Virus record (IMG/VR): IMGVR_UViG_3300050821_009780
Location: 79,504 to 143,503 of that record
DNA length: 64,000 nt
Source of the DNA: a virus
Reading direction: 5' to 3' (one strand)
Shown: piece after piece, positions 14,851-43,970 of the stretch
Layout: every line of letters starts with the position of its first letter
Numbering within the stretch: the first letter of the stretch is position 1
Made by a program: the position numbers and the translations under genes
Notes under the pieces: model-generated
Told to the model about the DNA's origin: nothing
The model's input: the letters and a program-made list of their open reading frames with translations, nothing else
Databases searched by the model: none

Positions 14851-15809
14851 CCCTGCCACGCCCCGTTCCGGTCAAACTTGCGGAAGTACTCGTAGGTGCG
14901 CTTCATCCCGTCGGCCAGGTCCATCTCCGGCTCCCAGCCCAGCGCCCGCAGGTGCGAGTCGTCCAGGGACTTGCGGAAGGTAATCTGCCCCGGCGGCGGG
15001 ACCTCCACGATGCACGACTTGCTCCCGGCCAGCTCTCTGGCCATCTGAGCCAGCTCCAGGACCGGGTAGTGGTCGTCGTTGCGGCAGACGTTCCAGGTGC
15101 CAGCCTTGCCGGCCTCCAGGATGGCGGCCAGGCCGCGCACGCTATCGCCGACCCAGGTGAGGCAGCGCTCGGTGCCGAGGTGGACGCGCAGGTCCATCCC
15201 GTGCTCGGCCTCCCAGAGCATGGAGTGCAGCACGTTGTATCCGACGGTACCGGGCTTGCCAGAGATGTGCGGCTTCTCGGCCGTCCGGGGCGGCCAGTAG
15301 GCGGGACCGTAGGGCATGTTCAGCCGGGCGACCATGAGGCCCTTCGGGGCGTAGACCCGGCATGCCTCCTCGCCCCACTTCTTGGACAGGCCGTACATGT
15401 TGACCGGCCGAAGCTGCGAACCGGGGCCGACGGTGCCGCTGTTGGCGGACTCGCCGTACACCTCGGAGGAGGACATGAACATGAGCCGGGAGCCGTAGTG
15501 CGCGCAGTCGCGGGCCAGCTGCCCGGTGAGGCCGGCGTTCATGCCTGCGGTCTTGTGCATGTCCACCTCGCCCCACACCCGGCCGTACAGCGCGGCGAGG
15601 TGGACCACGACATCAGGGCGGCGGTCCTCCAGCCAGTCCTCGCGGGCCTCGCGGCAGTTCAGGTCGAACAGGCGGAAGGTATCCCAGACCGGCTCGGTGG
15701 TGTTGGGGTAGACCAGGTCCTGGGCGTGGACCTCGTGGCCGCAGCGGTGCAGCTCGGCGAGCAGCCAGCCGCCGACATATCCTGACGCGCCAGTAACAGC
15801 GATTCTCAT
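14847..15809 (-). CDS. NAD-dependent nucleotide-sugar epimerase/dehydratase
   Basis: VTGASGYVG, HLAA, SSSEVYG and YGLSK (YxxxK) motifs. Confidence 0.9.
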   Translation of the reverse strand: MRIAVTGASGYVGGWLLAELHRCGHEVHAQDLVYPNTTEPVWDTFRLFDLNCREAREDWLEDRRPDVVVHLAALYGRVWGEVDMHKTAGMNAGLTGQLARDCAHYGSRLMFMSSSEVYGESANSGTVGPGSQLRPVNMYGLSKKWGEEACRVYAPKGLMVARLNMPYGPAYWPPRTAEKPHISGKPGTVGYNVLHSMLWEAEHGMDLRVHLGTERCLTWVGDSVRGLAAILEAGKAGTWNVCRNDDHYPVLELAQMARELAGSKSCIVEVPPPGQITFRKSLDDSHLRALGWEPEMDLADGMKRTYEYFRKFDRNGAWQG

Positions 15810-16957
15810 GCGGTGAAGTACTCCGTTTTCAGCAGTCCGGCCGCCGTCAGCGGCGCGTGGTGGCCGTTCCCGTTGCCGTTCGTCGGCGGCAGGGGCGGGC
15901 AGAGCTTCTCGCTCAGCACGGCAGCGGCCAGCTCCAGCCCGGCCCGGCGGTCCTCGGTGCGGCACCTGACCTGCAGGTCCCACAGCACGCCCATCGCCCG
16001 CACCACGCGCCGGGAGTCCACGCTGTGTGCCAGCAGCAGGCGGCCCTGCAGGGCCTCGCCCTGGGCGGCAACCGTGCCCCCGGCGGACAGCACCAGCACG
16101 TCGCGCAGGCAGGTAACCAGCTGCCGGGTAAGGGCGGGGTAGTCGCTGCAGGTGAGCAGCGCCCGGTCCAGCTCGGCGTACATCCCCTTGTGGTCGCCCT
16201 GCGCGGCGGCGGCGAGCAGGGCCGGGGCGAAGTCCTCGTCGCAGGTGAGCTGCTGCCAGGCGTCCAGGGTGACGATGTCCACCGACGCAGCCTGGTCGAG
16301 CAGCATGAGTCCGTCGCGCATGATCCCGTCGGCCCGGTCGGCCAGGTGGAGGAGCAGGCTGTCCTCGACGACAATGTCCTCGGCGGCGCAGACGTGGCGC
16401 AGCCGGGAGGCGATGACGGACGGGGCCAGCCGGGCGAACGCGAAGGGGATGCAGCGCGACCCGATCGTGTCCGGCACCTTGCCGTGCTCGGTGGTGGCGA
16501 GCACGAAAGCGGTGCGCGGCGGCGGCTCCTCCAGCGTCTTGAGCAGCGCGTTGGAGGCATCACGGCTCATGGAGTGGCACTCGTCGAGTATCACGACCCG
16601 CCACTCGCCAGGGGCGCCGTACTGCACCAGGTCGCAGATGCTCCGGATCTTGTCCACGGTGCCGTTGGAGGCGGCGTCCACCTCGATCACGTCCAGGGAA
16701 GTGCCGCCGGCGACCGCCTTGCAGGACGAGCAGGCGGTGCAGGGCCAGGAGGCGGCCGGGCCAGGCGGCTCGTGGCAGTTGAGGGCGGCGGCGAAGATGC
16801 GGGCGCTGGTGGTCTTGCCCGAGCCGAAGGCCCCGTAGAACAGCAGTCCGGCGGGCACGCGCTTGCGCTGGGCCATCCGGTTCAGCACCCCCGCCACCTC
16901 GCGCTGGCCGACCAGCTCGGCGAACCGCTGAGGACGGTATTTCGTGGCCAGCCTCAT
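15806..16957 (-). CDS. dnaX: DNA polymerase III gamma/tau-like clamp loader ATPase
   Basis: ATKYRPQRF, GAFGSGKTT, Zn-binding Cys cluster, EVDAAS, LDECH, NALLKTLEEPP and SRC motifs; gamma-sized (383 aa). Confidence 0.92.
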   Translation of the reverse strand: MRLATKYRPQRFAELVGQREVAGVLNRMAQRKRVPAGLLFYGAFGSGKTTSARIFAAALNCHEPPGPAASWPCTACSSCKAVAGGTSLDVIEVDAASNGTVDKIRSICDLVQYGAPGEWRVVILDECHSMSRDASNALLKTLEEPPPRTAFVLATTEHGKVPDTIGSRCIPFAFARLAPSVIASRLRHVCAAEDIVVEDSLLLHLADRADGIMRDGLMLLDQAASVDIVTLDAWQQLTCDEDFAPALLAAAAQGDHKGMYAELDRALLTCSDYPALTRQLVTCLRDVLVLSAGGTVAAQGEALQGRLLLAHSVDSRRVVRAMGVLWDLQVRCRTEDRRAGLELAAAVLSEKLCPPLPPTNGNGNGHHAPLTAAGLLKTEYFTA

Positions 16958-17229
16958 TGCGGTCTCCTGCCGATCGTGGTTCCCAGGAACACGTGCGCTG
17001 GGCTATCGGGTACGGGCGTGCTGGCCTTGCGCCGCACACCCTCCGGAATTCCCAGGGAGCAGCTGCCGGCGGCGGACTCGTCGGGCACCAGCTCGTAGCC
17101 GAACTCCATCTCGCACTGCGTGCAGCGCCAGTAGCAGAGCATGCCGCCCTCGGCCAGCTCCTCCTCCGGCTCGGCGGCGCCCCCGCAGTCGCTATCCAGG
17201 CAGGCGCGGTTCAGTTCGTAGCGTTCCAC
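16954..17229 (-). CDS. Small Zn-ribbon protein
   Basis: CLDSDC...CTQC; coupled to dnaX. Confidence 0.5.
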   Translation of the reverse strand: MERYELNRACLDSDCGGAAEPEEELAEGGMLCYWRCTQCEMEFGYELVPDESAAGSCSLGIPEGVRRKASTPVPDSPAHVFLGTTIGRRPQ

Positions 17230-18356
17230 GGCAGCCTCTCCAGCAGGATGAGCAGGGCCAGCACGGCCTGCCGCGGAACGACCCCGTTGCCGAGGATCTT
17301 CAGCTGGGCGTTGCGGGACAGGCCGTCCACCCCGGTGACCCAGCCCTCCGGCAAGCCGAGCATCCACTCCACGAAGACGGGGGCGAGCACGCGGTTGCCC
17401 TTGCTGCCCGGCTCCAGCGGGTGCGGCACCATCCGGCCGGTGACCTGCTGCCAGCGCAGGACGGCCCGGGAGTACTTGCCCCAGTCCACCACCGGGCCGC
17501 TGCCCAGGTGCTCGGCCAGGCCAGGGAGCAGCAGCTCCCCGCTGCGTGCCCCGGAGCGGTTCCTGTGGCCTCCGGTCACGTCGGCGACCTGCGGGGTGGG
17601 CAGGAGCGCGCCGGCCAGGGTCGGGTTACCGCGCTTGTACGCCAGGCTGCGCCGCTCCCCGTCAGCAGCTGCCGGGGTGGGGAGAAGGCTGCCCCCGGTG
17701 CCCATCATGTCGTTCTCCACCATGATCCGCAGGTCGGTGACCGAGGTGCGGCCCGGCTTCTTGCGCAGGTGGTTCTCCGGGGTGTTCTGGCTGTAGCTGG
17801 CGACCGGGGTGGGCAGCAGCTCGTGCTCGGCCTGGTCGGCGAGAGTGGGGCCGTGGCCGCCGGCCCGGCGCTTATCCGGGTGCTGGCTGCCGCCGTTGAC
17901 GGCGAGCTGCGCGGTGGGGGTCTTCAGCAGACTGACCGCCTCGGGCAGGTCCGCGTCCGCTGCGGTGCGCGCCCGGCCGTCCCTGCGGACCCGGCCCACC
18001 GACACGGTAGGGCCCTTGTGGTCGCTGGCCTGCGGGGTGGGCAGCATGGACAGCGTCTCGATGAGGGTGCCGCCCTCGCGGGCCTTGGCGGGGGTGACCA
18101 GTCCGCCGTTACTGCCCAGCGTCGCCGAGGGCGTCGGGAGCAGCAGGCCATGCGGTGATGAAGATCCGCTCCCGCCGGTGGCAGGACCCGGCATCTGAGG
18201 CGCGTACATTCTGCCATTCCGCATCGTACCCGAGGGTGGAAAGGTCTCCGAGAACAGCTCCGAGTGCCCGCAGAGCATGTCCTGCCCTTTTTCCCAGACA
18301 GATCTCGCAGGATTCCACGTCGCTATGGGCGGAGGCAGAGCATATCCCTCGGACAT
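17211..18356 (-). CDS. C5 cytosine methyltransferase C-terminal subunit (motifs IX-X) with LLPTP repeats
   Basis: Six L(L/M)(P/K)TP-initiated repeats, then VEWMLGLPEGW...QLKILGNGVVP. Confidence 0.75.
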   Translation of the reverse strand: MSEGYALPPPIATWNPARSVWEKGQDMLCGHSELFSETFPPSGTMRNGRMYAPQMPGPATGGSGSSSPHGLLLPTPSATLGSNGGLVTPAKAREGGTLIETLSMLPTPQASDHKGPTVSVGRVRRDGRARTAADADLPEAVSLLKTPTAQLAVNGGSQHPDKRRAGGHGPTLADQAEHELLPTPVASYSQNTPENHLRKKPGRTSVTDLRIMVENDMMGTGGSLLPTPAAADGERRSLAYKRGNPTLAGALLPTPQVADVTGGHRNRSGARSGELLLPGLAEHLGSGPVVDWGKYSRAVLRWQQVTGRMVPHPLEPGSKGNRVLAPVFVEWMLGLPEGWVTGVDGLSRNAQLKILGNGVVPRQAVLALLILLERLPWNATN

Positions 18357-18690
18357 TTTCGATTACCACCAGTTCCGGCCGGAGAATTCCGATTGCGTAA
18401 GCCATGTACGTCCACACGCCGCTGCGGGTGCCGGGGCGCAGCCCGGCCCGCTGGCCGGCGCAGGACACGTCCTGGCAGGGGAACCCCCCGCAGAAGATGT
18501 CCACCGGCTCGACCTGGTCCCACTCCACGGTGCTGATGTCGCCCAGGTTCGGCACGTCCGGGTAGCGCTGCTTGAGCAGCAGGGACACATCCGGGTCGTT
18601 GTCGGCAACCCAGGCCAGCTCGGCGCCGAACACGGCCTCGACGGCCCCGTCCAGGCCGGCGTAGCCGGTGCAGGCCGACCCGAGCCTCAC
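18109..18690 (-). CDS. C5 cytosine methyltransferase N-terminal subunit (motifs I-VIII)
   Basis: SACTGYAGLD, GDI, GGFPCQDVS (catalytic PC), IENV and HRRERIF motifs. Confidence 0.88.
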   Translation of the reverse strand: MRLGSACTGYAGLDGAVEAVFGAELAWVADNDPDVSLLLKQRYPDVPNLGDISTVEWDQVEPVDIFCGGFPCQDVSCAGQRAGLRPGTRSGVWTYMAYAIGILRPELVVIENVRGICSASAHSDVESCEICLGKRAGHALRALGAVLGDLSTLGYDAEWQNVRASDAGSCHRRERIFITAWPAAPDALGDAGQ

Positions 18691-19191: not shown

Positions 19192-19204
19192 AGATCCTCC
19201 TTGG

Positions 19205-19254: not shown

Positions 19255-19277
19255 AGGGGGTCGGGGGAACCCCTCCC

Positions 19278-24851: not shown

Positions 24852-26051
24852 CTAGTATCCCACCAGCGAAGAAGCCATCTGCGTGAGCACCTGAACGGTC
24901 CCGGTGCCCTCCAGAAGGATAACGGAGCGGCGCTTGCCGAGGTCCTTGCCGAGCCGGAACGCGCAGGTCACATCAGGGTGCGCGGCCAGCATCTCGGCGA
25001 GGAACACGTGGTTGACGCACAGCACCCGCTCCTTGCCGGGCCAGTCGGTGACCAGCTGAACGGGCACGGACGCGGAGTGGCCCACCTGATCGCGGGACAC
25101 CACGGTAACGGTGCTGCCCTCGACGACCAGCGCGATGGCGGCGGTGTCGGCGTCGGCGTTGACCCGGACGCACCGCACGGCAGCCGACAGCTCCTCGCGG
25201 TCCACGGCGAGTACCTGGTCGTTATCCCCCGCCGGGCCGAGCAGCTGCTTGTCCATGTCCGGGAACGGGGTGGAGCGGCGGGCCACGGCGAACACCACGT
25301 GGTCGGCGCGGAACACCAGGGCATCCTCGGTGACGGCCACGCCGACGGCGTCGCCCTGGCTGCCGGACACCAGCCGGACGATGTCGTCCAGGGCCGAGGA
25401 GGGGATGCACATGGGGTGGGGGAACTCGTCCAGCTCGGCGCGGGCGAACCGGGTGCCGTCGGAGGCGGTGATGCGCCTGCCCTCGAACCCGTCCGAGCCT
25501 TCGGGGGCGCCGATCTCCACCTGGGTGAGCATGGGGCGGCCGGCGTCGCGGCACACCGCATGGCGTACCGCCTTCAGCCCGGCGAGGAACTTCTCCGCCG
25601 GGTACAGGAAGAACCCCAGCTCGGACGGCTCCAGCAGCTGCGGGTACTCGCCGCTGTCCGGCAGGGCGAACACCCAGGAGGCGCTCCCGGCGGTGACGGT
25701 CGCCCGATCCTTCTTCACCGCGACGGTAATGCTCTCCTCCGTCGCCTCCTTCAGCACGGCCTGGAGCTTCTTCGCCGGGATGAACGCCTCGGCGGAAGCT
25801 GACTCGTCCACGCTGTCGCCGGTCCACACCGCCTCCGTGGAGGCGAGGACGATGCGCTCCATGTCGGTGGCGGCCAGCTCCAGCCCGGCATGGCTCACCC
25901 GGACCCGGTAGCAGCTAAGCACGGGGAACTGGCCGGAGGAGGGCACCGCCGGTGCCACGGCAGCGGCCAGGGCCTTCAGCACGTACGGCTTGACCCGGAA
26001 GGTGAACTCCCCGTAATCGGTTCCCGCAGCCGGTTCGTCCGCCTCGTTCAC
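24852..26051 (-). CDS. dnaN: DNA polymerase III beta sliding clamp
   Basis: PVLS, LELAATDME, IPAKKL, EYP, RPMLT, ASDGTR and FPD motifs; 399 aa, three-domain size. Confidence 0.85.
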   Translation of the reverse strand: MNEADEPAAGTDYGEFTFRVKPYVLKALAAAVAPAVPSSGQFPVLSCYRVRVSHAGLELAATDMERIVLASTEAVWTGDSVDESASAEAFIPAKKLQAVLKEATEESITVAVKKDRATVTAGSASWVFALPDSGEYPQLLEPSELGFFLYPAEKFLAGLKAVRHAVCRDAGRPMLTQVEIGAPEGSDGFEGRRITASDGTRFARAELDEFPHPMCIPSSALDDIVRLVSGSQGDAVGVAVTEDALVFRADHVVFAVARRSTPFPDMDKQLLGPAGDNDQVLAVDREELSAAVRCVRVNADADTAAIALVVEGSTVTVVSRDQVGHSASVPVQLVTDWPGKERVLCVNHVFLAEMLAAHPDVTCAFRLGKDLGKRRSVILLEGTGTVQVLTQMASSLVGY

Positions 26052-28166: not shown

Positions 28167-28419
28167 GGCTGGCCTCACAGAAGGTGCAGCCGGCCCCCGT
28201 GCAACCCTCGCCGCAGGTTGCGCCGAGCGCGACGACCAGCTTCGGGATATCCGCATCCTCGACGCAGATTTCCTCGTAGCAACGGTCCTTGATCGAGAAA
28301 TACCCGTAGTTACGTGTCACCCGCAGGCTCTCCAGGCCGTCGTCTGCGATGCCTATCCTAGTCTCGTGCCCAAGGGTCATGCGCTTCTCGTACGACGGCT
28401 CGTACTCAGCGGTCGCCAT
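28159..28419 (-). CDS. Hypothetical protein
   Basis: Overlapping ORF with a Cys-rich C-terminus. Confidence 0.5.
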   Translation of the reverse strand: MATAEYEPSYEKRMTLGHETRIGIADDGLESLRVTRNYGYFSIKDRCYEEICVEDADIPKLVVALGATCGEGCTGAGCTFCEASRA

Positions 28420-29431
28420 GCTGTGCTCCTGTCAGCAGTTCCTCCACGAGGTCCTCCACGTCCTTGCCTAGGCCTAGCGACTTCACGTGCGCGATGACGG
28501 ACCCGGTGTTCAAGATCTCCAGCCTGGCATCGCCAGCTGACTGGAGGAACTCGTCGAGCCGGCCCTGCATGTCGGTGGCCTGCTGCTTCTCCTGCAGCCG
28601 GAAGACCTCGCCGGCGGGCTTGGCATCGAGCGGGACGAACTCGAACGCCCCGGTGTCCTGATCCCAGAAGGTGACGCCTACCTGGCGGGTCAGATTGTAC
28701 TCGTGCAGGCTGCCGCGGCTCAGCGCCCCGTTGTTGCAGAAGGTCACGCCGCCGTGCTGGAACATACGGTGCGGCTCGTGCACATGCCCGTAGAAGACAT
28801 TGCCTCCGTAGCCCATGTGCTCGGACCAACGCATGCCGGGAAACCACTCGTAGGGCAGGTTCTCGCCTGGCGGGTAGAGCGGCGCGTGGGTGACGACCAG
28901 GTACGGCTCGCGGATGTTCACCTCCCGGTACAGGCGCAGCGCCTCGGCAACAGCAGTATCGATGCCCGGCTGAAGCGGCAGCGGAGCGCTGCGCGCCATC
29001 ACCTTGACCAGCTCCTCATCCCACAGCCCGTATCCCTGCAGCCAGGGCACGCCGAACACCTTGAAGGGGCTGCCCCAGCCGTTCAGCTCGGTCGCCCCGG
29101 CGCGGTACAGCATGCCGAGGGGCTGCTTGGTGCTCACCGACTCCAGCCGGTCGTTGGACATGTCGTGGTTACCGGCCAGGATGAGCACCGGGAAGTGAGG
29201 AATACAGCTCTTGATGAACTCGCAGGTCCGGTGCACCAGGCTGTAGGACACCCGGCTGGGGGCCTTGCAGTGGAAGGTGTCCCCGGCCCACACCATGGGG
29301 GAGCCGCGCTCGATGCACAGCTCGCGGGCCTGCTCCAGCAAGTCGAAGAGATCATCCGTGTAGGACTCGGTGCAGCTAGCGGGCGGCTTGTCCGACAGAT
29401 GAATATCTGAGATGAGACACAGGCTAGTCAC
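28406..29431 (-). CDS. Mre11/SbcD-like metallophosphoesterase nuclease
   Basis: SDIH, GDTFH, GNHD, THAP, GHVH and NNGALSR motifs. Confidence 0.88.
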   Translation of the reverse strand: MTSLCLISDIHLSDKPPASCTESYTDDLFDLLEQARELCIERGSPMVWAGDTFHCKAPSRVSYSLVHRTCEFIKSCIPHFPVLILAGNHDMSNDRLESVSTKQPLGMLYRAGATELNGWGSPFKVFGVPWLQGYGLWDEELVKVMARSAPLPLQPGIDTAVAEALRLYREVNIREPYLVVTHAPLYPPGENLPYEWFPGMRWSEHMGYGGNVFYGHVHEPHRMFQHGGVTFCNNGALSRGSLHEYNLTRQVGVTFWDQDTGAFEFVPLDAKPAGEVFRLQEKQQATDMQGRLDEFLQSAGDARLEILNTGSVIAHVKSLGLGKDVEDLVEELLTGAQHGDR

Positions 29432-29711: not shown

Positions 29712-29962
29712 GACTCTTTTACGATTTCCTCGGTCCACCAGTGCACCGCGACACCCTTCCGGACCCACGGGCTCTCGTACTTCCCTGTCGCGATACGGCG
29801 GATCTCGGCAATACGGTTCGGGTCCAGCAAGGGACCGTACCCGTGGCCATCCTCGGGAGACGCCCACGTGCGCCCGTGGCCGTCGCTGCGGGGCAGGTAA
29901 TCATGCGGCCTGCCGCACGTCTTGCAGGCCGCCGCCTTGCGCAGCAGCTCGGGAACGGTCAC
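29708..29962 (-). CDS. Hypothetical protein
   Basis: Coupled ORF with CxxC. Confidence 0.5.
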   Translation of the reverse strand: MTVPELLRKAAACKTCGRPHDYLPRSDGHGRTWASPEDGHGYGPLLDPNRIAEIRRIATGKYESPWVRKGVAVHWWTEEIVKES

Positions 29963-31356
29963 GGCAGCGCGTGCGCGGCGAGCAGGCTCCAGGTGACCGG
30001 GCCGACGGTACCATCCTGCTGCGCCGGGTCGTTCGGGTAGTAAGCCCGCTGCACTGCGACGACGGCGTTCTCAGTGTTCTGCCCGAAGTTCCCGTCGATG
30101 GCGAGCTGCAGCCCGTGCGCCTCGCACAGCGCCTGCACCCGCTTGACAGAGGCAGCCACAGGCAGGCCGGAACCCTTAGTCAGGGTCAGCAGCTGAGCGT
30201 TCGGCGAGCCGCCGACCAGCACCTCCCAGGTCACCGGGTCGGTCCAGCCGGTGGTCAGCAGCCCGGCGGTGGCCTGCAGGGCCTCCAGCGCGGTCTGGGT
30301 CTCGGCCCCGAAGTCCCCGTCCACCGGCACCGCCTGGCTGGCGGGAAGCGCCACGTTGAGGAGCAGCTGCACCTGGCGGACCCACGTCACGTTCCCGGCG
30401 GCGTCCTGGTCGCCCAGCCGGATGCCGGGGAGCTTGGAGTACAGCGTGGTCTCCCAGGCAGCGAGCGGAGCCGGGGCAGGAGCTGGCGGAGCAGGAGCCG
30501 GGGCGGGCGGCGGCGGGGGCGCGTACAGCCACAGGGTCACGTCGGAGGGAACAGGGGCAACCGGGGAGATCGTCCCGGCGAACATGCCGTTGATGAAGTC
30601 GGTGAGCGCGGCGTTCCAGCCGTACTTGACGTAGGTCCCGGCCAGGATGCCGGCGACGGTCTGGCCCGGCGCGAGCGCGGCGGCCTCGTACATGGCGGTC
30701 CGGCCATCTCCGCGCCACTGCTGCGGCACGGCGGGATCGGGCGCGGGGAGCTGGAAGAACGCGGGGCTGTTCACCGCCGACTCGTCCCACCCGGCGGTGG
30801 AGACGTACTGGGTGCCGTCCGCCTGGGGGTACCCGCAGGCGCTGGGCGAGCAGATGTGCCGGCCGATCCAGTGCGCGGACCAGATCCGGTACTTGGTCCT
30901 CGGTATCCCTGCGGCGGTGCACGCGTCGATGCAGTCCTGCACCGAGTAGCCGGCCGCCGCGCCGGGGGAGGCGTAGAAGCCGAGGCCGCCCGCCTTGATG
31001 AACGCGGGCACGCTGGAGGCGGTCACGTTGCCCGGCTCGATGTCGGTGTACATAGCCCCCTTGGCCCCGTCCGGGGTGACGGACACCAGCTGGGCGGCGG
31101 GGAACCGGGCCCTCAGCGCGGCCATGTTCTCGTAGATGCCGTTGAAGTACCCGGCGTAGGCGAACGCCCCGGCGGGGTCCGACCCGACGGCGGTGCTGTC
31201 GTACATGGCCTCGACGCCGGACGGGAGGTTCGCGGCGGCCAGCAGGTGCGCGGCGGTATCAAACCGGGCCCCGTTCGGGCCTGCCTGCATGGTGGCGGCG
31301 ATCCAGGCGGCATCGTGCAGCAGGTTCTGCGGCTGGACCACGGTCTGCTCTGTCAT
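29959..31356 (-). CDS. Endolysin-like protein: GH25/DUF1906-like glycoside hydrolase plus two peptidoglycan-binding domains
   Basis: DIEPG, IWSAHW, GTQY and DES motifs; Pro-rich linker; two V..VQ...DG.FG..T..A...Q...G...P.TW PG_binding_1 repeats. Confidence 0.8.
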   Translation of the reverse strand: MTEQTVVQPQNLLHDAAWIAATMQAGPNGARFDTAAHLLAAANLPSGVEAMYDSTAVGSDPAGAFAYAGYFNGIYENMAALRARFPAAQLVSVTPDGAKGAMYTDIEPGNVTASSVPAFIKAGGLGFYASPGAAAGYSVQDCIDACTAAGIPRTKYRIWSAHWIGRHICSPSACGYPQADGTQYVSTAGWDESAVNSPAFFQLPAPDPAVPQQWRGDGRTAMYEAAALAPGQTVAGILAGTYVKYGWNAALTDFINGMFAGTISPVAPVPSDVTLWLYAPPPPPAPAPAPPAPAPAPLAAWETTLYSKLPGIRLGDQDAAGNVTWVRQVQLLLNVALPASQAVPVDGDFGAETQTALEALQATAGLLTTGWTDPVTWEVLVGGSPNAQLLTLTKGSGLPVAASVKRVQALCEAHGLQLAIDGNFGQNTENAVVAVQRAYYPNDPAQQDGTVGPVTWSLLAAHALP

Positions 31357-32291
31357 GACGTTCCCTCTCCCACTGACTGCCCGCAGGTAGGACAGGTCCC
31401 GGCGGCTACCAGCGCCTCGTGCAGCGCCCGGTGCGCCTTATCTTCCTCGACGGCGAGTATCTGCTGCTGCCGCTCCGTTGTCCTTGCGGCCTGATCGGCC
31501 TGCTGGTACTGGCTGTGCAGGTTGCGGAGACGGCCGAGCCGGGAACCCAGGAGGTCAAGCTGCTCCGCCGACGGAGCACTCAGCACGGCCAGCCTGGTCT
31601 CAGCGGCACTCTGGGCGGCGATGCCCTGGCGGAAGGCGGACCACAGCGCCCCGAGCCGCTCTCTCTGGTCGGTGATGTACTCCAGGCTGTCCATCCGGTC
31701 ACGGGCCTCCATAAAGGCAGCCCGGCGGGCTTTCAGCGTGCGGAACGGCTGCGCGGCTGCAGTCAGCGCCCGCACCATATCCTCATAGGACTTAAGCTCG
31801 CGGGCGATCTCCAGCTTGCGCCGGTTGGCCTCGCGGGCGGCGTCGAAGACCAGGGTGACGTTGGTCAGCTCGCCGAGCGCCCGGGCGACCTGGCTGCCGG
31901 AGTCGGCCAGCAGGAACGGCCGGTCGAACTGCCCGGCGAAGTTGATGTCCTGCAAGGCCAGCAGGGCGCTGACCTCCTCCGGCACCGCCCCGGCGAGCTT
32001 GGTGTACGTCTTCTTCTCGCCCAGCACGTTCACGGTGTAGGCGTCCTGGCCCCGGCCGCCGCGCACGATCCCTGCTGTCAAGCCGCTGTCATCCTGCACG
32101 ATGGCCTTGCAGGACTTCGCCCCGTGCCTGATGTAGGCGGTGCCGCGGGCGTTGAACACGACCAGCTTCAGCGCCCGGACGACAGCGGACTTGCCGGAGC
32201 CGGTGGGGCCGGTGACGACGGTGAGCCGGCCCAGGCGCAGCTGCGCCTTGCGGAGCGCCTGGTAGTCCTCGATGGCGATGTCGGTGATCAC
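31353..32291 (-). CDS. Rad50/SbcC-like ABC ATPase, N-terminal half ending at the zinc hook
   Basis: IEDYQAL, Walker A GPTGSGKS, Q-loop FAGQFD, coiled coil, terminal CPTCGQ. Confidence 0.85.
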   Translation of the reverse strand: MITDIAIEDYQALRKAQLRLGRLTVVTGPTGSGKSAVVRALKLVVFNARGTAYIRHGAKSCKAIVQDDSGLTAGIVRGGRGQDAYTVNVLGEKKTYTKLAGAVPEEVSALLALQDINFAGQFDRPFLLADSGSQVARALGELTNVTLVFDAAREANRRKLEIARELKSYEDMVRALTAAAQPFRTLKARRAAFMEARDRMDSLEYITDQRERLGALWSAFRQGIAAQSAAETRLAVLSAPSAEQLDLLGSRLGRLRNLHSQYQQADQAARTTERQQQILAVEEDKAHRALHEALVAAGTCPTCGQSVGEGTS

Positions 32292-32305
32292 GTCTGTTGT
32301 ACGGG

Positions 32306-32554
32306 TCAGGCCGGGCAGGAGGACGTAGCCGCCAGCTCGGCGTCGTAGTCCTTGTCGGTCTTGATGGTCATGTTCGAGGTCTCCGAGCAGCCGCACGGGC
32401 AGCTGTAGCAGTCGCCGCCGCCGAAGCTGCCCGCCCCGCACACCCCGGCCCCGCAGTTCCAGCAGACGTGGTGCCAGTGCGCGGAGGTGTACAGCCGGGA
32501 CTGCTCGCACCGGTCAGGCAGCCGGACTGCCTTCAGCGCCATACCAGGGACCAT
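32306..32554 (-). CDS. Small Cys-rich protein
   Basis: Multiple CxxC motifs. Confidence 0.45.
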   Translation of the reverse strand: MVPGMALKAVRLPDRCEQSRLYTSAHWHHVCWNCGAGVCGAGSFGGGDCYSCPCGCSETSNMTIKTDKDYDAELAATSSCPA

Positions 32555-33958: not shown

Positions 33959-35035
33959 CTACGTATCCGAGGAGGATTCTTCCTCCCACGGGGGCGGGTC
34001 GTCCCCCGTCAGGCTGGCGCGCGGCTTCGCAACAGGAAGCACGGGAGACGCAGCCCGGACTGCCTTCTCGATGGCGGCAAACCCCTCCGGGTTAGCGTCC
34101 AGGTAGCCCCGGGCGGCAATCTTGCCGTTGCCGATATTCTGCCCATCCCAGACGTACCAGGCCCCGGACTTCTTCAGAGCCCCGCGCTCCACCCCCAGGT
34201 CGAGCAGCTCGGCGGAGCGGCTGATGCCGACGCCGAACAGGAAGTCGAACTCGGCGGTCTGGAACGGGCGGCCCAGCTTGTTCTTGACCACCTTGACCCG
34301 CACCCGGCTGCCGACGGGCTGGTCGCCGTCCTTGATGGTCGAGATGCGCCGCACGTCGAGCCGGACCGACGCGTAGAACTTCAGTGCCTTGCCGCCCGGC
34401 TGAGTCTCGGAGCTGCCGAAGAACACCCCGACCTTCTCGCGCAGCTGGTTGATGAAGACGAGCGTGGTGCCGGAGTCGTGCGCCTTCCCGGTCAGGATAC
34501 GCAGCGCCTGGCTCATCATGCGCGCCTGCAGCCCGACGTGCGCATCACCGATCTCGCCCTTCAGCTCGGCCTCGGGCACCAGGGCCGCGACCGAGTCGAT
34601 GGTGACCATGGAGAACAGCCCGGACGACACCAGGTTGTCGGCGATCTGCAGGCCCTTCTCGCCGCTGTCCGGCTGCGACAGGTACAGGTCGTCCACGTTC
34701 ACCCCGAGGATGTCGGCCCACTCGGGGTCCAGGGCGTGCTCGGCGTCGATGAGCGCGACCTTCTTGCCCATCCGCTGCGCGTTGCCCATGGCGGTCAGCG
34801 CCAGGGAAGTCTTGCCGGACGACTCAGGACCGTAGATCTCCACGATGCGCCCGGCCGCGAACCCGCCGACCTTCAGCGCCTCATCCAGCGCGATAGACCC
34901 GCTCGGGACCACGTCCACCGGCTCCGGATCAGTGTCATCGCCGAACCGGATGAGCGCGCCCTTGCCGAACTGCTTGTCCATTCCGGCCATGAGGTCGGAC
35001 ATCTTCTGCTCGGGGGTCAGCTCGGCCTTCGCCAT
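33959..35035 (-). CDS. recA: Recombinase RecA
   Basis: [56 protein letters not shown] and VVKNK motifs. Confidence 0.97.
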
Positions 35036-35430
35036 CAGATGGTCTCCCAGCCGTTGTTGTCCCCCAGGAGGCGCAGCCGCCGCAGCTCGGTCAGCAGGCG
35101 GACGAAGTGCTCGCCGGACATGGTGACGTAGCCGGTGCCTGGGTCGGTGGCCTGGAGGCGGGGCGAGAGCCGGCGGCGGTGCCACACGGCCCCGACCGGC
35201 ACCTTGGCGTTATCCGCCTCGGCCACGGCCTCGTCCACCCACTGGGCCAGGGTCTGGCCCTTGCAGTTCTTCGCCTCGATGACGACACCGGGCACCGACG
35301 GCACCTCGATATCTCCCTCGTCCTTGCTCCCGGCCTGGACCTTGCGCCGGGCCGGGAGGCCGCGGAGCGCCAGGTAGGCGACCACCGAGACCTCCCACGA
35401 GGTGCCTTTTTTCTTGGCGGGGTTCGACAT
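35035..35430 (-). CDS. Holliday junction resolvase (Hjc-like PD-(D/E)XK)
   Basis: [13 protein letters not shown] and IEAKN motifs. Confidence 0.8.
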
Positions 35431-36638
35431 CAGACCCCGTCGAGCAAGTTGTCGAAGTCGAAGTCCCCGCTAGAAGACGCCGTCTCCGGAGACGGCGTAG
35501 AGGAGGGCGCACTGGCAGGGGCTGAACCCGCAGCACTCTCACTCTCATCCCCGAAAGGGTCGTCAAGAACCTTCCGGGCCTTCTCCGCCTGCTGCGCAGC
35601 CTCCTGCTCCCGCTCGACGCCTGCTACCAGGCCGGCCGCGTCAGAAGGGCGGGCAGTCCGGGGAGTCGCAGGCTTTTTCGTTGAGGCAGAAGCCTTCTTT
35701 GGCGCAGCCTGCGGCGAGTCCGGCAGGAACTCCGCGAAAGGGTCGGCCACCGCAGAGCCCAGCGCCGCCTTCTGCTCGTCGGTCATCGCGTCCAGGACCG
35801 TGCCGGCATCCTGGGTCTCCTCCCCGAGCAGCTCCTCGATGCCGCCGGACAGGTCGGCGGCCTTGGACTGGAACGCCTCGGAGACCTGGCCCTCGTTGCG
35901 CAGCTTGCGCCACTGGCGCATCGCGAACTCGCAGTCCTCCTGCATCCGCTCGCGCGGCACGGCCGAGCCGCAGCCGTCCTTGAGCTGGGCGTCGGTGGCC
36001 CGGTTGCCCGCCGTGCCGAGCAGCTCCTTCAGGTAGCCTGCCGGGGCTTCCTTGTAGCCCGGGTCCATCTTGAACGCGAGCTTGTTCCGCTGCCAGCTCG
36101 GCTCCTCGCACTCCAGGGTGATGTCGTGCCGGCGCAGGTCGCCGATCTCCTGCTGGATGCCCTCGATCTCATCGTAGATGCGGCCGGTGAACTTCCACAT
36201 CTTGATGGAGGCGCTGAACGGCTTGGCGGTGTTGAAGCTGTTCCCGGCCAGGGTGTAGTACACCACGTTGACCGCGAACCGCTGCACCGGGCCGGCGATG
36301 TCCCCGCCTGACTTGACAGACGCGTCGCAGGCGGGGCAGTTCCGCTCGTCGATTCCCTTTTCCCTCAGCGTGTCCTCGTCGCCCAGGCAGATCTCGGTGC
36401 GCAGCAGTTCCAGATCGTAGTCGTCGTACTCGTCGCCGTTCTTCCGCCTCTTCTTTTCCTTCTTCGGGGTGCCGTCGTCGTGAAACTTGGGGTGCTTGAT
36501 GTAGTGAACGAATTCGCGCCACGGTTCTTCGATGACTGTGAAACGTGCCTTCTGGCCTTTTTCCGTAAGCTTGACTGAGGGGAACCCGGCCGTGCCTTCG
36601 CCGGTCTTGTTCTCGGGTGCGACCGCTACTCTGCCCAT
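35430..36638 (-). CDS. ssDNA-binding protein (gp32-like)
   Basis: H...C...CPAC Zn site, RFAVNVV, acidic-hydrophobic tail DFDFDNLLDGV; next to resolvase and recA. Confidence 0.7.
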   Translation of the reverse strand: MGRVAVAPENKTGEGTAGFPSVKLTEKGQKARFTVIEEPWREFVHYIKHPKFHDDGTPKKEKKRRKNGDEYDDYDLELLRTEICLGDEDTLREKGIDERNCPACDASVKSGGDIAGPVQRFAVNVVYYTLAGNSFNTAKPFSASIKMWKFTGRIYDEIEGIQQEIGDLRRHDITLECEEPSWQRNKLAFKMDPGYKEAPAGYLKELLGTAGNRATDAQLKDGCGSAVPRERMQEDCEFAMRQWRKLRNEGQVSEAFQSKAADLSGGIEELLGEETQDAGTVLDAMTDEQKAALGSAVADPFAEFLPDSPQAAPKKASASTKKPATPRTARPSDAAGLVAGVEREQEAAQQAEKARKVLDDPFGDESESAAGSAPASAPSSTPSPETASSSGDFDFDNLLDGV

Positions 36639-36931: not shown

Positions 36932-36932
36932 C

Positions 36933-38625: not shown

Positions 38626-38632
38626 GCTCCTG

Positions 38633-41191
38633 CTACAGCTCCAGCCCGGCACCGAGCGCGGTCAGGTCCACCGACGCCTCATCGTAGCGGACCACGGCCC
38701 CGCCGCAGATCACGGACAGGTCGGCCTGGTCGGCCGGGGCCACCCCGCAGGTGCCAGTCATGATGACCCGCTCGCCGTCCGGGAGCACCAGCACCAGCGT
38801 GTTCGGACCTGTCCTGACGCGGCAGTAGCGGACCAGCTCCGGCACCGCTTCCTGCGGCATGCGCCCGGTCAGCTCCACAATCACCGTACGGGGCACCGGG
38901 TGCCCGTGCTCGCTCTCATACTCCTCGCGAGCGGGCGGCAGCGCATCATGCCCGTGCTCGTTCTCGTACTCCTGTGCCTGCCGGGTCCCAGCGTAATCCG
39001 GTTCCTCCCGCCTGCTCCTTATCTCCGCCAGGGCGGGCAGCACCGGGGCGGGGGCCACATCGTCCTCGTCCTCCTCGGACAGGTCGATGTCGGTTTCCGG
39101 CTTCACGGCCCCGGCGGCGAAGCGGTACCGGCTGTCCGGGCCCTTCTCCAGGGTGCGGACCGACCCCCAGCGCCGCCCGGCGTGCCACTCGGCGAGCATG
39201 GGCGGCCAGCCGGGGACGGGGAAGATGATCGCGGGCTCCAGCACCGCGATCACGTCGTTGAAGTCCACGTCGTTGCGGACGTACCACTCCAGGGCGTCGT
39301 GGATGTTCATGACGAGCCGGACCTTGTCCTTCAGCCCGGCCTTGCGCAGCGCGGCCTCGGAGCGGACCATGGCGATTTTCATGTAGTCGCCGGTGGCGGA
39401 CCCCTGCACCGGGGCGTTGCCGGCGGTGCGCTGCGCATCGCGGCGCTTGCGGCGGTCTGTGCTGTCGATGTCCCAGATGCGGACCTGGCGCCCCCACCAG
39501 GTGGTGACGTACCCGGTGTCGTACGCGGTCTTGATGCACTCCTCGGTGAACGCCTTGATCTTCGGGTAGGCGGCGTGGAAAGCGGCGAACAGGTCGGCCG
39601 CCTCGGCCCGGCTGATGCCGAGCCGGTCGGCGAGGCCATCTTCGGACAGCCCGTAGACCATGGCCAGGCCGAGCGTCTTGCCGACGTCGCGCTGATCGGG
39701 GGTGACCTCCTCGACCGGGACGGCGAACACCAGCGACGCGGTGACCGAGTGCACGTCCACGTTGTGCTCGAAGGCGTAGAACATCTTCTGCTCGTGCGCC
39801 ATGCCGGCGACCGCGCGCAGCTCCGCCTGGGCCAGGTCGTAGCCGAGCTGGTACCAGCCCGGCGGCGCCCCGATCATGTCCCGGAAGTTGAACTTGAACT
39901 CATCACCGTCGCGCAGCGTGTAGAAGTACTTCTTGGGCGACTGCTGGTAGTTCGGATCGTTGCAGGCAAACCGGCCGGCCGGGACGCCGTGCTGCATGAG
40001 CGAGGCGTGCACCCGGCCGTCTTCGGCGTAGCCGTAGGCGTCCTCGAACTTGACCAGGAAGTCGCGGTACAGCTTGGTGAGCTTCTTCCACTTCAGGAAG
40101 CTGGCGACCTCGGGGTAGGTCTTAGACAGTCCCTTGAGCGCGACCTTCGCATCTGTGCCCTGCTGCGGCCCGGTAGTCTTCCCGCCCTTGGTCCAGTGAG
40201 TGCACGGCATGCCGCAGTCCTCGTACAGCAGCTTGCGAAGCTGGACCGGGGAGCCGAAGTTGAACGTGGGCAGCAGCGCCTCGCCTCGCAGCGCCCCGAA
40301 GTCCTCGCGGACCTCCTCCATGTAGCGGTCGGCGAAGTCCTTCGCCTTCCGGCCCCACTCGCGCATGCCGTTGAAGTCGTACCAGATGCCCTCGTCCTCC
40401 ATCTCGCAGACGACGGGCAGCACGGCCATTTCCAGCTTCCAGATGAACCCCTGGCCCTTGGCCTGGCTCTCGGCGAGCATCTGCTGCAGCCGCGGGTAGC
40501 GGAGCCGGTGGTGGGCCAGCGCGTAGACGGTGTCCTCGCAGGTGTAGCGGACCACCTTGGGGTCGCGCGGGTCCAGCACGTTGAACCGGATCTGCTTCCG
40601 CTGCTTGGCGGTGAGCTTGTCCGGGTACAGCTCCGCCAGCTCCAGCTGCTTGTGCCAGAAGCCGCTGGTGTCGCGGGCCTCCTGCTCCTCGGTCAGCTCC
40701 TTGAGGCCGTGGAGACGGCTGCCGGCCAGGGCGTAGGACTCCAGCATGGTGTCGGAGCGGAGCCGGAACTGCTGGTAGTCCAGGTCGGTGCCGAGCTGCT
40801 CGTTGAACCAGCGGCGCAGCACCCGCAGGTCGAACTTGCCGCCGTGGAAGGTCATGAGCGGCTGCCCGGACTCGCTGCGCGCCTGGGTGAACAGCGGGTA
40901 GAGCAGCTCAGCTACGCCGCGCGGGTCGAGATTGGGTCCGACATCGTGCCCGACGGGGACGTACCGGGACCACTTCAGCGAGTTGGTGAAGGAGACCCCG
41001 GCGATGAAGTTCTCCTCCGGGTGCAGCGACGCCTTATCGCGCGAGTCCCCCAGGTATCCGGTCTCGATGTCGCCGCTGCACGCACGCCCATCGGGCTTAG
41101 CGGGGTCGGTGCACTCGACGGTGACCCGGGCGACGTACTCCCTCAGCTCGTCCAGGCTGCCGATGAGATCGTAACTAGGCTGGAAGGCCAC
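38633..41191 (-). CDS. polA: Family A DNA polymerase with 3'-5' exonuclease and an extra C-terminal domain
   Basis: Exo I DIETG, Exo II FHGGKFD, Exo III YTCED; motif A DLAQAELR, motif B RDVGKTLGLAMVYG, motif C NIHDAL. Confidence 0.93.
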   Translation of the reverse strand: MAFQPSYDLIGSLDELREYVARVTVECTDPAKPDGRACSGDIETGYLGDSRDKASLHPEENFIAGVSFTNSLKWSRYVPVGHDVGPNLDPRGVAELLYPLFTQARSESGQPLMTFHGGKFDLRVLRRWFNEQLGTDLDYQQFRLRSDTMLESYALAGSRLHGLKELTEEQEARDTSGFWHKQLELAELYPDKLTAKQRKQIRFNVLDPRDPKVVRYTCEDTVYALAHHRLRYPRLQQMLAESQAKGQGFIWKLEMAVLPVVCEMEDEGIWYDFNGMREWGRKAKDFADRYMEEVREDFGALRGEALLPTFNFGSPVQLRKLLYEDCGMPCTHWTKGGKTTGPQQGTDAKVALKGLSKTYPEVASFLKWKKLTKLYRDFLVKFEDAYGYAEDGRVHASLMQHGVPAGRFACNDPNYQQSPKKYFYTLRDGDEFKFNFRDMIGAPPGWYQLGYDLAQAELRAVAGMAHEQKMFYAFEHNVDVHSVTASLVFAVPVEEVTPDQRDVGKTLGLAMVYGLSEDGLADRLGISRAEAADLFAAFHAAYPKIKAFTEECIKTAYDTGYVTTWWGRQVRIWDIDSTDRRKRRDAQRTAGNAPVQGSATGDYMKIAMVRSEAALRKAGLKDKVRLVMNIHDALEWYVRNDVDFNDVIAVLEPAIIFPVPGWPPMLAEWHAGRRWGSVRTLEKGPDSRYRFAAGAVKPETDIDLSEEDEDDVAPAPVLPALAEIRSRREEPDYAGTRQAQEYENEHGHDALPPAREEYESEHGHPVPRTVIVELTGRMPQEAVPELVRYCRVRTGPNTLVLVLPDGERVIMTGTCGVAPADQADLSVICGGAVVRYDEASVDLTALGAGLEL

Positions 41192-41194
41192 TGC

Positions 41195-41804
41195 TCACGC
41201 ACCTTCCAGGGCCTCGTCTATCTGGCGCTTCAGGTCGGTGAGCGACGGCCCCTCGAACCACGTGTCGCCGCTCTCCGACACGGCGCAGTACAGCTGCCCG
41301 GAAGCGGTCGGCCGCCCGTACCAGAGGGTGTAGCCGTGGTGCCGCTCGACCGGGACGGGCTGGGAGTTCACCTACGCAGCCCGGTTGTACCGCGACCCGG
41401 CGAGCGCCTGGCGTGCCTCTTCCCTGGTCGGGAAGCGGAACGCTCCCTGGCGGAACGGGGCGAAGTTCCACTCGTGCATGACCCGGGCGAACTCGCCCAG
41501 GAACTCGTCCTCGGTGACATCCGGGGCGGCGAGCACGACCTCCAGCTCCACATCCAGCCCGGCTATCACGTCCAGTTCAGCTGCCGTCATCTCCCACCCT
41601 CCGGTGACTCGCCTGCACAGAACCGGCTCGTTCATCAAGCCGGTCCAGCCTGTCCCGCAGCTGCACAAGCTGCTCCGGGGTAAGAAGTTTCATCGCCTCC
41701 TGGGCGACCCGCTTGGCAGCAGCCAGCCGGTGCTCCGCCTGCATCCGGGCAAAAGCCTCTTCCGCCAGGCTGAGCGCGGCCTCTGCCATCATTTCGTCCG
41801 CCAC
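41195..41804 (-). other. Three small hypothetical genes (about 41195-41371, 41372-41590, 41577-41804)
   Basis: Short, tightly packed minus-strand ORFs. Confidence 0.45.
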
Positions 41805-41811
41805 CCTCCTA

Positions 41812-42732
41812 TTACGCCCAGAGAGCGGCGACCGCCTCCAGGATTCCGTCCCGGGCCCCGGACTTCCAGGCGGACTCGGCCAGAGCGAGGACCTCCCGGC
41901 AGCGGGCCGTCCTGCGCGGGGTGTAGGCGGCAGCGTACGGCCGGAGCAGCCGCACCGAGTACGCGTCTATCTTCAGCCGGATGGCGGCGTCCTGCGCGCT
42001 CACGCCCTTGCGGGCGGCATCGCTGAGCACGGACAGCACGGTCAGCCGGGACGACAGCAGGGCGAGCACCTGGCCGGCCTGGTCCGGGGGGGTAAATGCG
42101 GCAGCCGCCATGGCGGCCTTCACGTTGCCGGCCACCATCAGGTCGGCGAACTCGTACCGGGCGGCGGGCGGGCACACCAGGTCCAGCGCGGGCACCTCCG
42201 GAGGCAGGTCGGCGAACCCGGCCTTCAGGGCGGCGTGCCGGGCGGCGGCGATATCTCCCGCGCACCGCTCCAGCAGGGCGGCCCCGAAGTTGCGCCCGGC
42301 GCCAGGCCACCAGGAGGCGGCGAGCTGCGCCTGCCCCTCCGGGTCCTTCGGGACGGTGCAGCGGACCAGCTGGCCGTGCCGGGAGTCGCGCAGGGCGGCC
42401 AGCGACGGGGCGAGGACGGACCGCGGCCTGTCCGGCTTCTCGCTGCGCTCCTCGGTGCGCGGGAAGTCGTCGTCAGCGGAGACGAACACGGTGAACGCGC
42501 GGTCGAACTCGTCGGCCAGCAGCAGCGGCAGCCGGTCCAGGTGGCCGAGCTTCTCCGCTCCCCATACGGTAACCAGCCTCGGGCCGGACGGGACGGCCAG
42601 CAGGATATCCCACGGGTTGCTCTCAGGCCACAGGTTCCACCGGCTGGCTCCGGGCAGCGCCTCGGCGTAGGCGGCGGTGACATCATGGCGCAGCACCGGC
42701 TCCGGCCCGCACACCCAGGCGACCCGGGTCAC
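41812..42732 (-). CDS. DNA polymerase III delta (HolA)-like clamp loader subunit
   Basis: N-terminal VAWVCGPEPVL resembles the HolA YLLxGxEx motif; C-terminal FADLMVAGN...LALAESAWKSG...LEAV collar pattern; about 300 aa; start approximate. Confidence 0.55.
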   Translation of the reverse strand: MTRVAWVCGPEPVLRHDVTAAYAEALPGASRWNLWPESNPWDILLAVPSGPRLVTVWGAEKLGHLDRLPLLLADEFDRAFTVFVSADDDFPRTEERSEKPDRPRSVLAPSLAALRDSRHGQLVRCTVPKDPEGQAQLAASWWPGAGRNFGAALLERCAGDIAAARHAALKAGFADLPPEVPALDLVCPPAARYEFADLMVAGNVKAAMAAAAFTPPDQAGQVLALLSSRLTVLSVLSDAARKGVSAQDAAIRLKIDAYSVRLLRPYAAAYTPRRTARCREVLALAESAWKSGARDGILEAVAALWA

Positions 42733-42770
42733 CGGCTTCTTGCGCGCCCACTGGCTGTAAGTGCCGACGG

Positions 42771-43178
42771 CTAGCTCCCCGGCTTCAGGGAGAAACCGGT
42801 CTCGGCGGCCAGCTGGCGAATCATAGAGGGAGTGAACGACGCACCCAGGCCGAGCTGCGCCTTGCGGCCCTGCTCGCCGGCGGCCTGCTGCTGCTCTGCT
42901 ACCTGCTGCTCGAAGGAGATGCGGGCCTGGATCGCCCACAGCTGGCCCGGCGGCCCGAATGCCTCGGCGACCGACTGGATAAGGCTGTCGAGCCGGGCGC
43001 TGAGCACCGTGCCAGGGTCGAACTGGATGCCCCGGCGGGCCAGCTCGGCAAACCCGGCCTTGTTCTGCTCGACGAGCCCGTTCAGGTGCTGCTGCATCTG
43101 CGCGGCCTGCTGAGCCAGCTGCTGCTCCTGGGTCAATGCCTGCCCGTTCGGCTGCCCGAACCCGTTGGTCCCTGCCAT
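42771..43178 (-). CDS. Hypothetical Gln-rich protein
   Basis: Located between the holB-like and holA-like genes. Confidence 0.55.
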   Translation of the reverse strand: MAGTNGFGQPNGQALTQEQQLAQQAAQMQQHLNGLVEQNKAGFAELARRGIQFDPGTVLSARLDSLIQSVAEAFGPPGQLWAIQARISFEQQVAEQQQAAGEQGRKAQLGLGASFTPSMIRQLAAETGFSLKPGS

Positions 43179-43970
43179 TTACCTTTCCTCCCTGAACGCG
43201 CTGGACAGCGCAACCGACGAAGCATTCCTCGCACCCTCGTACCGCCCCAGGGCGCGCAGCACCCGGCGGGCCTGGTCGCTGGTCACGCCGGGGGCGAACC
43301 CGGCGGAGAACCGCACCCACCGGGCGGAGGCGGCCTCTTCCGCCCAGGCGCGCAGCACCCCGGCGTGGGCCGGGGTCCAGAAGCGGAGCGCCAGCTCCAG
43401 CACCGCGCCATCGCCGTCCTGCGCGGCACGCAGGGCTGCGGCGACCACCGAACGAAGCCTGCCGCCATCACTGTCCCGGGCTGCCTCCAGGGCCGGAGCG
43501 ACCCGGCCGCGGCCGAGCGGGGCGCACCGCAGCGCCTCGCTGCGACCGCAGTGCTGCTCCAGCACCTCGGCGACCTGCGCATCGGTGAGCAGGCTGACCC
43601 GGTACACCACGGCCCGGGAGACGACGGTGGGCAGCGGCGGGCGGGACGCGGTAAGCAGGAACCGGATGTGCGGCGGCGGATCCTCCAGCACCTTGAGCAG
43701 AATGTTCTGCGCGGCCTCGGTGGTTCCGTCCAGCCCGATGATCACTGCGATGCTCCCGCCCTGCGGGCGCTGGCGCGGGACCAGCCCGACAATTTCCCGG
43801 GCGAGCGCGGCAGAGGGGCCGTCGTAGCCGTAGGAGGTCATGCGGTGGTGCCGGGCGGCATGCTGGGCCAGCTCGGTCTTGCCGACCGAGGACGGGCCGA
43901 GCAGCAGGGTGACCGGAAGCAGATCGCGCTCCAGCTCAGCCCGCAGCGCCTCGTGACCGACGAGCCTCAC
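43179..43970 (-). CDS. DNA polymerase III delta' (HolB)-like clamp loader subunit
   Basis: LVGHE, LLLGPSSVGKT, AAQNILLKVLEDPP and LPTVVSR motifs. Confidence 0.78.
   Translation of the reverse strand: MRLVGHEALRAELERDLLPVTLLLGPSSVGKTELAQHAARHHRMTSYGYDGPSAALAREIVGLVPRQRPQGGSIAVIIGLDGTTEAAQNILLKVLEDPPPHIRFLLTASRPPLPTVVSRAVVYRVSLLTDAQVAEVLEQHCGRSEALRCAPLGRGRVAPALEAARDSDGGRLRSVVAAALRAAQDGDGAVLELALRFWTPAHAGVLRAWAEEAASARWVRFSAGFAPGVTSDQARRVLRALGRYEGARNASSVALSSAFREER

Follow-up and report, generated by a model that had tools for sequence, protein, structure and literature searches.

A family A DNA polymerase encoded with a bacterial-type sliding clamp and a three-component clamp loader in a high-GC phage genome

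Replication genes of the locus

The subject of this analysis is the replication machinery encoded by a virus record from IMG/VR (IMGVR_UViG_3300050821_009780), examined in a window, the whole stretch of 64,000 nucleotides under study, that covers bases 79504-143503 of the 143,503-bp record, for which CheckV gives a completeness of 100%. The record has a G+C content of about 69%, its credible genes, as judged from their third-position GC (GC3), lie almost all on the minus strand, and among cultured phages its nearest relative is Microbacterium phage Magritte (OR553905, 133 kb). Within the window we find a family A DNA polymerase (PolA), a bacterial-type beta sliding clamp, the clamp-loader ATPase DnaX, and the delta and delta'-like subunits of a clamp loader, all five encoded on the minus strand (Table 1). 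An initial annotation of the window had listed this set as polA, beta clamp, DnaX, HolA-like and HolB-like genes, accompanied by DnaB and a single-stranded DNA-binding protein (SSB), and Pfam, PHROG, family-profile and fold searches locate all five at or close to where it had placed them. The genes for delta' and delta adjoin that for PolA, while dnaX and the clamp gene (dnaN) lie 22 kb and 13 kb away from it, respectively.

Table 1 Features of the window, with the evidence for each and the corresponding gene of phage Magritte (aa, amino acids; AF2, AlphaFold2)
Feature	Position in window	Strand	Evidence	Magritte gene
DnaX, gamma-length clamp-loader ATPase, 383 aa	15806-16957	-	PF13177 1.5e-33; DnaX lid PF22608; phrog_5846 'clamp loader' 1.3e-61	gp4
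Bacterial-type beta sliding clamp, 399 aa, three domains	24852-26051	-	phrog_947 4e-35 (residues 19-368)	gp247
Family A DNA polymerase (PolA), 852 aa, 3'-5' exonuclease and polymerase	38633-41191	-	PF00476 2.4e-75; phrog_17 4.5e-94	gp69
Delta (HolA-type) clamp-loader subunit, 318 aa	41812-42768	-	family profile against PDB; AF2 model; Foldseek	gp67
Delta'-like clamp-loader subunit, 263 aa	43179-43970	-	PF13177 4e-9	gp62
DnaB-type replicative helicase	47782-49215	-	PF03796 4.3e-23; phrog_19 4.4e-50	gp51
Small primase-like protein	47255-47785	-	34% identity (E 1e-28) to Magritte gp59, annotated DNA primase	gp59
Probable SSB	35430-36638	-	34% identity (E 1e-45) to Magritte gp72, annotated SSB; acidic tail ...DFDFDNLL	gp72
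RecA	33959-35185	-	PF00154 3.2e-110	gp75
Nucleotide-sugar epimerase/dehydratase	14847-15983	-
Radical SAM protein, 1292 aa	19278-23156	-	Pfam matches at residues 61-203 and 642-792
SbcD-like protein	28406-29431
Probable endolysin	29959-31356	-	PG_binding_1 x2
SbcC-like protein	31353-32510
Sigma-70-like protein	50893-51612	-	weak region 2 and region 4 matches

PolA is the sole polymerase of this phage. The whole genome holds exactly one PF00476 locus, and a six-frame search of the complete 143,503-bp sequence returned 0 candidates for a family C polymerase (PF07733), with control genomes positive, and none for family B (PF00136), so that the absence of DnaE which the initial annotation had noted for the window extends to the entire record. 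The refuting find which that annotation had named, a dnaE in another part of the genome, is therefore not present. The motifs of the enzyme are readable (DIETGY, YTCED, DLAQAELR, RDVGKT..YG and IHDA), and neither Pfam nor a reading of the sequence reveals a 5' nuclease domain. Its motif C reads IHDA instead of the usual HDE, both here and in most of the clade, one member of which (P0199) has HDE. Beyond the catalytic domains the protein carries a clade-specific C-terminal extension (about residues 690-852), kept in 14 relatives including Magritte, and made up of an acidic linker, some 85 residues that form a domain, and a hydrophobic tail, SVDxxALxxGLxL, at the very C-terminus. The domain has no recognisable kin: Pfam searches of 11 members at E values up to 10 gave nothing meaningful, and a profile of the domain against PDB gave nothing below an E value of 0.45. 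An ESM-Atlas match of this domain to a cluster that in part carries PF20914, the C-terminal domain of Pol III alpha, had a score of 0.90 with 156 shared features, which lies in the range of chance; searches with hidden Markov models failed to reproduce it, and we dropped it.

The clamp-loader ATPase DnaX is of gamma length, as are its relatives (382-385 residues), and its catalytic motifs are complete, with a P-loop GAFGSGKT at residue 42, a Walker B motif VILDECH at 122 and an SRC motif at 167, as well as a four-cysteine zinc module of the form C-x12-C-x2-C-x2-C at 61. The C-terminal domains IV-V of tau, which bind DnaB and Pol III alpha, are absent from the 383 residues.

The clamp is diverged, and on its own sequence the Pfam scores are weak (1e-7 to 4e-9). 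A family profile built from 19 relatives nevertheless aligns with the clamp structure 7rzm_A at an E value of 5.6e-47, with residues 14-359 matching 6-350, that is, over about 345 residues and all three domains. The isoelectric point of the protein is 4.9, and an acidic isoelectric point has been used as a criterion for ring clamps that come with loaders (PMC3201878). We found 40 relatives at E<=0.001, some of them on contigs of up to 150 kb; a search of IMG/VR for related loci returned no loci with the single clamp sequence and just 4 with the clamp alignment.

Delta is the subunit that sequence searches recognise least readily, with a single sub-threshold Pfam match (PF21694, 3e-4). An exhaustive phmmer search with it collects 231 homologous clusters at 50% identity, and a profile of 89 homologues matches the delta subunit of B. 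subtilis (3zh9_B) at 1.9e-19, with residues 4-314 aligned to 3-323, and that of E. coli (1jqj_C) at 9.6e-7 over the full length. The AF2 model is of high quality (predicted local distance difference test, pLDDT, 96; predicted template modelling score, pTM, 0.83), and when it is submitted to Foldseek the first four ranks are all occupied by delta chains (3zh9, 1jr3_D, 3glh_A and 8giy_A). The sequence contains no P-loop (GK[ST]). Profile and fold search thus agree that the HolA-like gene of the initial annotation, placed at 41812-42732, does encode a delta subunit; its start needs to be moved, however, 12 codons upstream to 42768, because the homologues have about 12 further N-terminal residues and the in-frame upstream residues VGTYSQW fit the family consensus. 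The family is diverged, widespread and overlooked by current phage annotation: no PHROG family matches it, it falls below the Pfam gathering score, and its member in Magritte is labelled 'ASCE ATPase'. A tblastn search with delta against 50,697 phage records gave no match.

The delta'-like protein, proposed as HolB-like in the initial annotation, has the three-domain AAA+ fold of clamp loaders in its AF2 model (pLDDT 93.7), for which Foldseek returns clamp-loader chains at E values of about 1e-10. In the family alignment the Walker B motif reads LDG(T/S), so that the DE pair is gone, and the P-loop is deleted or degenerate in six members (P0227-P0230, P0236 and P0237), while the studied phage keeps GPSSVGKT. 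The arginine of the SR(A/C/S) motif is invariant in all 28 aligned sequences. Loss of the Walker B acidic pair, repeated loss of the P-loop and an invariant SR(A/C) arginine together make up the signature expected of a non-catalytic stator, and judged by these motifs the subunit is probably non-catalytic. The tblastn search of the same phage records with delta' found only DnaX-like genes of Vibrio phages, and these weakly.

Conservation among relatives and precedents in other phages

In the direction of transcription the module reads DnaB, primase-like protein, delta', delta, PolA, SSB-like protein and RecA, and it is collinear with that of Magritte. Magritte also has the DnaX-like gp4 and the clamp-like gp247, and no DnaE; identities range from 28 to 39% (32% for PolA, 39% for gp4, 28% for gp247). 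The delta profile detects Magritte gp67 at 6e-101 and its counterpart in an IMG/VR relative (G004) at 2e-119, and both of these genomes hold the complete five-gene set without DnaE. The order delta'-delta-PolA is found in Magritte, in G004 and in three metagenomic contigs (L037, L038 and L039); in the last three delta is only about 26-30% identical, yet the arrangement DnaB ... delta'-delta-PolA ... RecA is kept. A fourth, shorter contig (L035) shows delta followed by PolA only, the latter 34% identical to that of the studied phage. Two other distant delta contexts, one or the other too short or without DNA, gave no information on PolA. The neighbourhoods of the two distant genes are conserved as well: on the 143-150-kb contigs of relatives, the clamp gene lies by a PD-(D/E)XK nuclease and dnaX by sugar-nucleotide enzymes. 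The recurrence of this gene order among such diverged relatives marks it as a stable and long-standing feature of a broad phage clade and not as a recent capture.

Two observations on the relatives may be added here. The deposited record of Magritte differs in its labels, in that the clamp and all three loader subunits (genes 4, 62, 67 and 247) are called 'ASCE ATPase', a label that gp247 bears although a beta clamp is no ATPase, and the clamp and loader system thus goes unrecognised in that record. In L039 (9395-13009) PolA is 1204 residues long and a LAGLIDADG domain splits the PF00476 match, which suggests that this PolA probably holds an intein.

The initial annotation had strongly put forward the combination of PolA with a clamp and loader as a candidate for a replication system not yet described, and here it went too far. 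In 2011 Ma-LMM01 and RSL1 were described as phages that have PolA together with polIII-beta and polIII-gamma, and it was proposed that the clamp confers processivity on PolA (Kazlauskas & Venclovas 2011, PMC3201878), and the record of Streptococcus phage Dp-1 (HQ268735) likewise contains a clamp, a loader and PolA. We checked all three: Ma-LMM01 and RSL1 have PolA and a PF13177 protein and no DnaE, and in Dp-1, too, PolA is present and DnaE absent. PolA-type matches and DnaX, again without DnaE, also occur in Nodularia phage 2AV2 and Vibrio phage SSP002. Ma-LMM01 and RSL1 resemble the studied phage in being large and in having PolA and homologues of beta and gamma, but they differ in that only one loader subunit is found there, where the studied phage has delta and a delta'-like subunit as well; the delta profile has no match in either of them. 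What completes the loader was a question put by the authors of the 2011 study, who also noted that some phage clamps look horizontally acquired (PMC3201878). Their later survey found bacterial-type clamps and gamma subunits to be, among viruses, exclusive to phages (Kazlauskas & Venclovas 2016).

Phage Dp-1 comes closer in gene content, with DnaN (gp10), DnaX (gp17), a gamma/tau-like protein (gp18) and HolA (gp19) annotated. It shares a bacterial-type clamp with a three-gene loader, a family A enzyme as the only polymerase, and a clamp gene beside a PD-(D/E)XK nuclease. It is, however, a 56-kb, low-GC phage of a Firmicute host whose loader operon lies far from PolA, as opposed to 143.5 kb and 69% GC here, and the delta profile does not detect gp19, which indicates that the two delta lineages are very distant. 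Against this background what is new is modest, namely a clade in which the gamma, delta and delta' set can be identified in full, an overlooked delta family and a clade-specific C-terminal domain of PolA. For the studied clade the question of 2011 receives one answer, a genuine delta together with a delta'-like subunit as the probable stator. Recognition of the delta family, with its 231 clusters, would also improve phage annotation.

Role of the clamp and loader

PolA is the sole polymerase and is encoded beside delta' and delta, and this is explained most simply if it acts as the replicase, with the clamp as its processivity factor. We therefore favour, with moderate confidence, a self-contained phage replisome in which the phage's own family A polymerase is made processive by its own bacterial-type beta ring. 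We infer a pentameric loader of the gamma3-delta-delta' type, in which three active DnaX ATPases would be joined by one delta 'wrench' and by one inactive delta'-like stator donating an arginine finger. Driven by ATP, such a loader would open the dimer of beta subunits and reclose it on primed sites, which the phage primase would make behind the phage DnaB helicase, and PolA, with its proofreading activity and without a 5' nuclease, would then dock on the loaded clamp. It is a reasonable inference, as the initial annotation had it, that a phage has in this way reassembled a holoenzyme of Pol III type with Pol I at its centre. Relative to the Pol III holoenzyme of E. coli and B. subtilis, the clamp, DnaX with its catalytic motifs, delta and the delta'-type subunit are homologous, whereas the family C polymerase, the C-terminal domains of tau, which would tether a polymerase, and the chi/psi subunits are absent and the polymerase belongs to family A. 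Phage T4 (polymerase gp43, clamp gp45, loader gp44/62) similarly encodes a polymerase together with the clamp and loader that serve it, but the latter two are of the PCNA/RFC type and the polymerase is of family B.

That a family A polymerase can be a true client of a clamp is indicated by Pol I of M. tuberculosis, in which a defined motif mediates strong binding to the beta clamp of the same species (bioRxiv 10.64898/2026.09.19.751633), and PMC3201878 cites work in which beta stimulates Pol I of E. coli. To the phages in which a probable Pol I-type replicase goes together with a clamp and loader of bacterial type, the finding adds a large and mostly uncultured clade of about 130-150 kb and high GC. 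Magritte grows on a harmless laboratory host and, being tractable, would be a convenient source for a bench test of a PolA-beta holoenzyme.

Several observations weigh against such an assignment. The canonical clamp-binding motif (Q-phi-x-[LM]-[FL] or Q-phi-x-[LM]-x-[FL]) is absent from the PolA of the studied phage, and a regular-expression scan of 15 aligned PolA sequences finds no such motif conserved in three or more. The clamp itself ends in QMASSLVGY (family consensus QMxxxLVGY) where bacterial clamps usually have a pocket-forming end of the M-P-x-R-L type, and with this non-canonical C-terminus the mode of docking is not readable from the sequence. In delta the Leu-Phe pair that forms the 'wrench' of the E. 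coli subunit is not recognisable, the aligned segment being LLAVPSG and the family consensus not LF-like. For the delta'-like subunit the fold search cannot separate delta' from gamma, as gamma/tau chains come first and E. coli delta' (1a5t) only at rank 48, and phmmer against PDB gives gamma/tau matches only. The clamp gene lies amid recombination nucleases and not beside PolA, a position that would also fit a client in repair or recombination. Finally, our literature searches turned up no biochemical study of a PolA-beta pair from any phage.

One could speculate that the missing motif is made good by the C-terminal extension of PolA. By analogy with polymerases that dock by their C-terminal tails, of which that of T4 is the model, we propose the conserved domain and its hydrophobic tail as a candidate clamp tether. 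The more specific notion that the extension is a new kind of tether, which holds a family A polymerase on a diverged beta clamp, a tau-less loader or the helicase, is tentative and we regard it as possible though doubtful. Were it true, the extension would replace both the canonical clamp-binding motif and the link between tau and alpha, and the result would be a minimal holoenzyme built on Pol I, open to reconstitution with the proteins of Magritte, a cultured phage.

The absence of the clamp-binding motif from PolA and the surroundings of the clamp gene could also mean that the clamp and loader are mainly there for other clients, either recombination and repair nucleases or late transcription, with PolA processive by itself, perhaps through its C-terminal domain. 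Both here and in relatives the beta gene adjoins a PD-(D/E)XK nuclease, SbcC/SbcD-like genes and RecA, and the DnaN gene of Dp-1 likewise adjoins a RecB/Cas4-type nuclease and RecU. Clamps do act in late transcription in phage T4, where gp45 works with gp55/gp33, and in phage Mu, where MuC works with the host beta. For Mu this use of the beta clamp is reported in PMC12867686, and the studied phage has a sigma-like gene (Table 1). We nevertheless consider this explanation unlikely, as delta' and delta remain tightly linked to PolA in distant relatives and a dedicated three-component loader would be costly for accessory clients alone; moreover, a multiplicity of clients is compatible with PolA being one of them.

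The cellular partners of bacterial-type clamps and loaders are family C polymerases, and it could accordingly be supposed that bulk synthesis is done by the host Pol III alpha (DnaE1), brought in by the clamp and loader of the phage, with PolA left to gap filling and the processing of Okazaki fragments, as for cellular Pol I. Some host replication enzymes are probably used in any case, since neither a 5' nuclease nor an ATP-dependent ligase of the phage was detected; Okazaki fragments are probably matured by host enzymes or by unrecognised phage proteins. PolA, however, lacks the 5' nuclease that primer removal would require, and a DnaX without the alpha- and DnaB-binding domains of tau argues against a partnership with host DnaE. 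Furthermore, the clamp is highly diverged from cellular clamps, both in its Pfam scores and in its C-terminus, and DnaE is absent from the relatives checked (Magritte and G004). A replisome built on host DnaE1 thus seems to us distinctly improbable, more so than one in which the clamp serves mainly other clients. We found nothing in favour of a recent capture of the clamp-loader genes from a host, or of their being decaying passengers without a role in the phage, and this reading is hardly credible, given that their open reading frames are all intact and have the high GC3 of other genes of the same genome, that the catalytic motifs of DnaX are intact, and that they belong to phage-borne families with relatives at 25-80% identity in conserved synteny and with only distant similarity to cellular proteins.

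Other replication genes and neighbouring genes

Among the remaining replication genes, the DnaB of the initial annotation is confirmed by both of its family matches (Table 1). Its SSB fares less clearly: likeness to Magritte gp72 and the SSB-like acidic tail speak for it, but neither Pfam nor PHROG has a matching family, and by its sequence the protein appears to belong to an unclassified SSB family common to gp72. This probable SSB also contains a CPAC motif. The small primase-like protein has no Pfam match of its own; its gene is syntenic in L037, where the product shows a weak Zn_ribbon_DnaG match. Another reading frame, at 44370-45491, was considered as a primase and rejected, having no Pfam or PHROG match. 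The sigma-70-like gene lies upstream of the replication module, and L037 has a syntenic sigma-like gene.

Directly downstream of dnaX lies the nucleotide-sugar epimerase/dehydratase gene, a placement kept in two relatives (L014 and L015), and in Magritte the genes near its DnaX (genes 5-8) include a UDP-glucose dehydrogenase and two glycosyltransferases. These sugar-nucleotide genes may constitute a module for glycosylation of the DNA or the cell envelope that is linked to the replication genes. On the other side of the clamp gene, the probable endolysin gene stands between the SbcC-like and SbcD-like genes; L015 has the corresponding gene in the same place, there with Glyco_hydro_25. Between the clamp gene and dnaX, beside DNA methyltransferases, lies the gene for the radical SAM protein, which is considerably longer than its counterparts in L014 and L015 (953-956 residues). 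The gap of about 440 residues between its two Pfam matches, together with this difference in length, suggests that the gene may hold an inserted element such as an intein.

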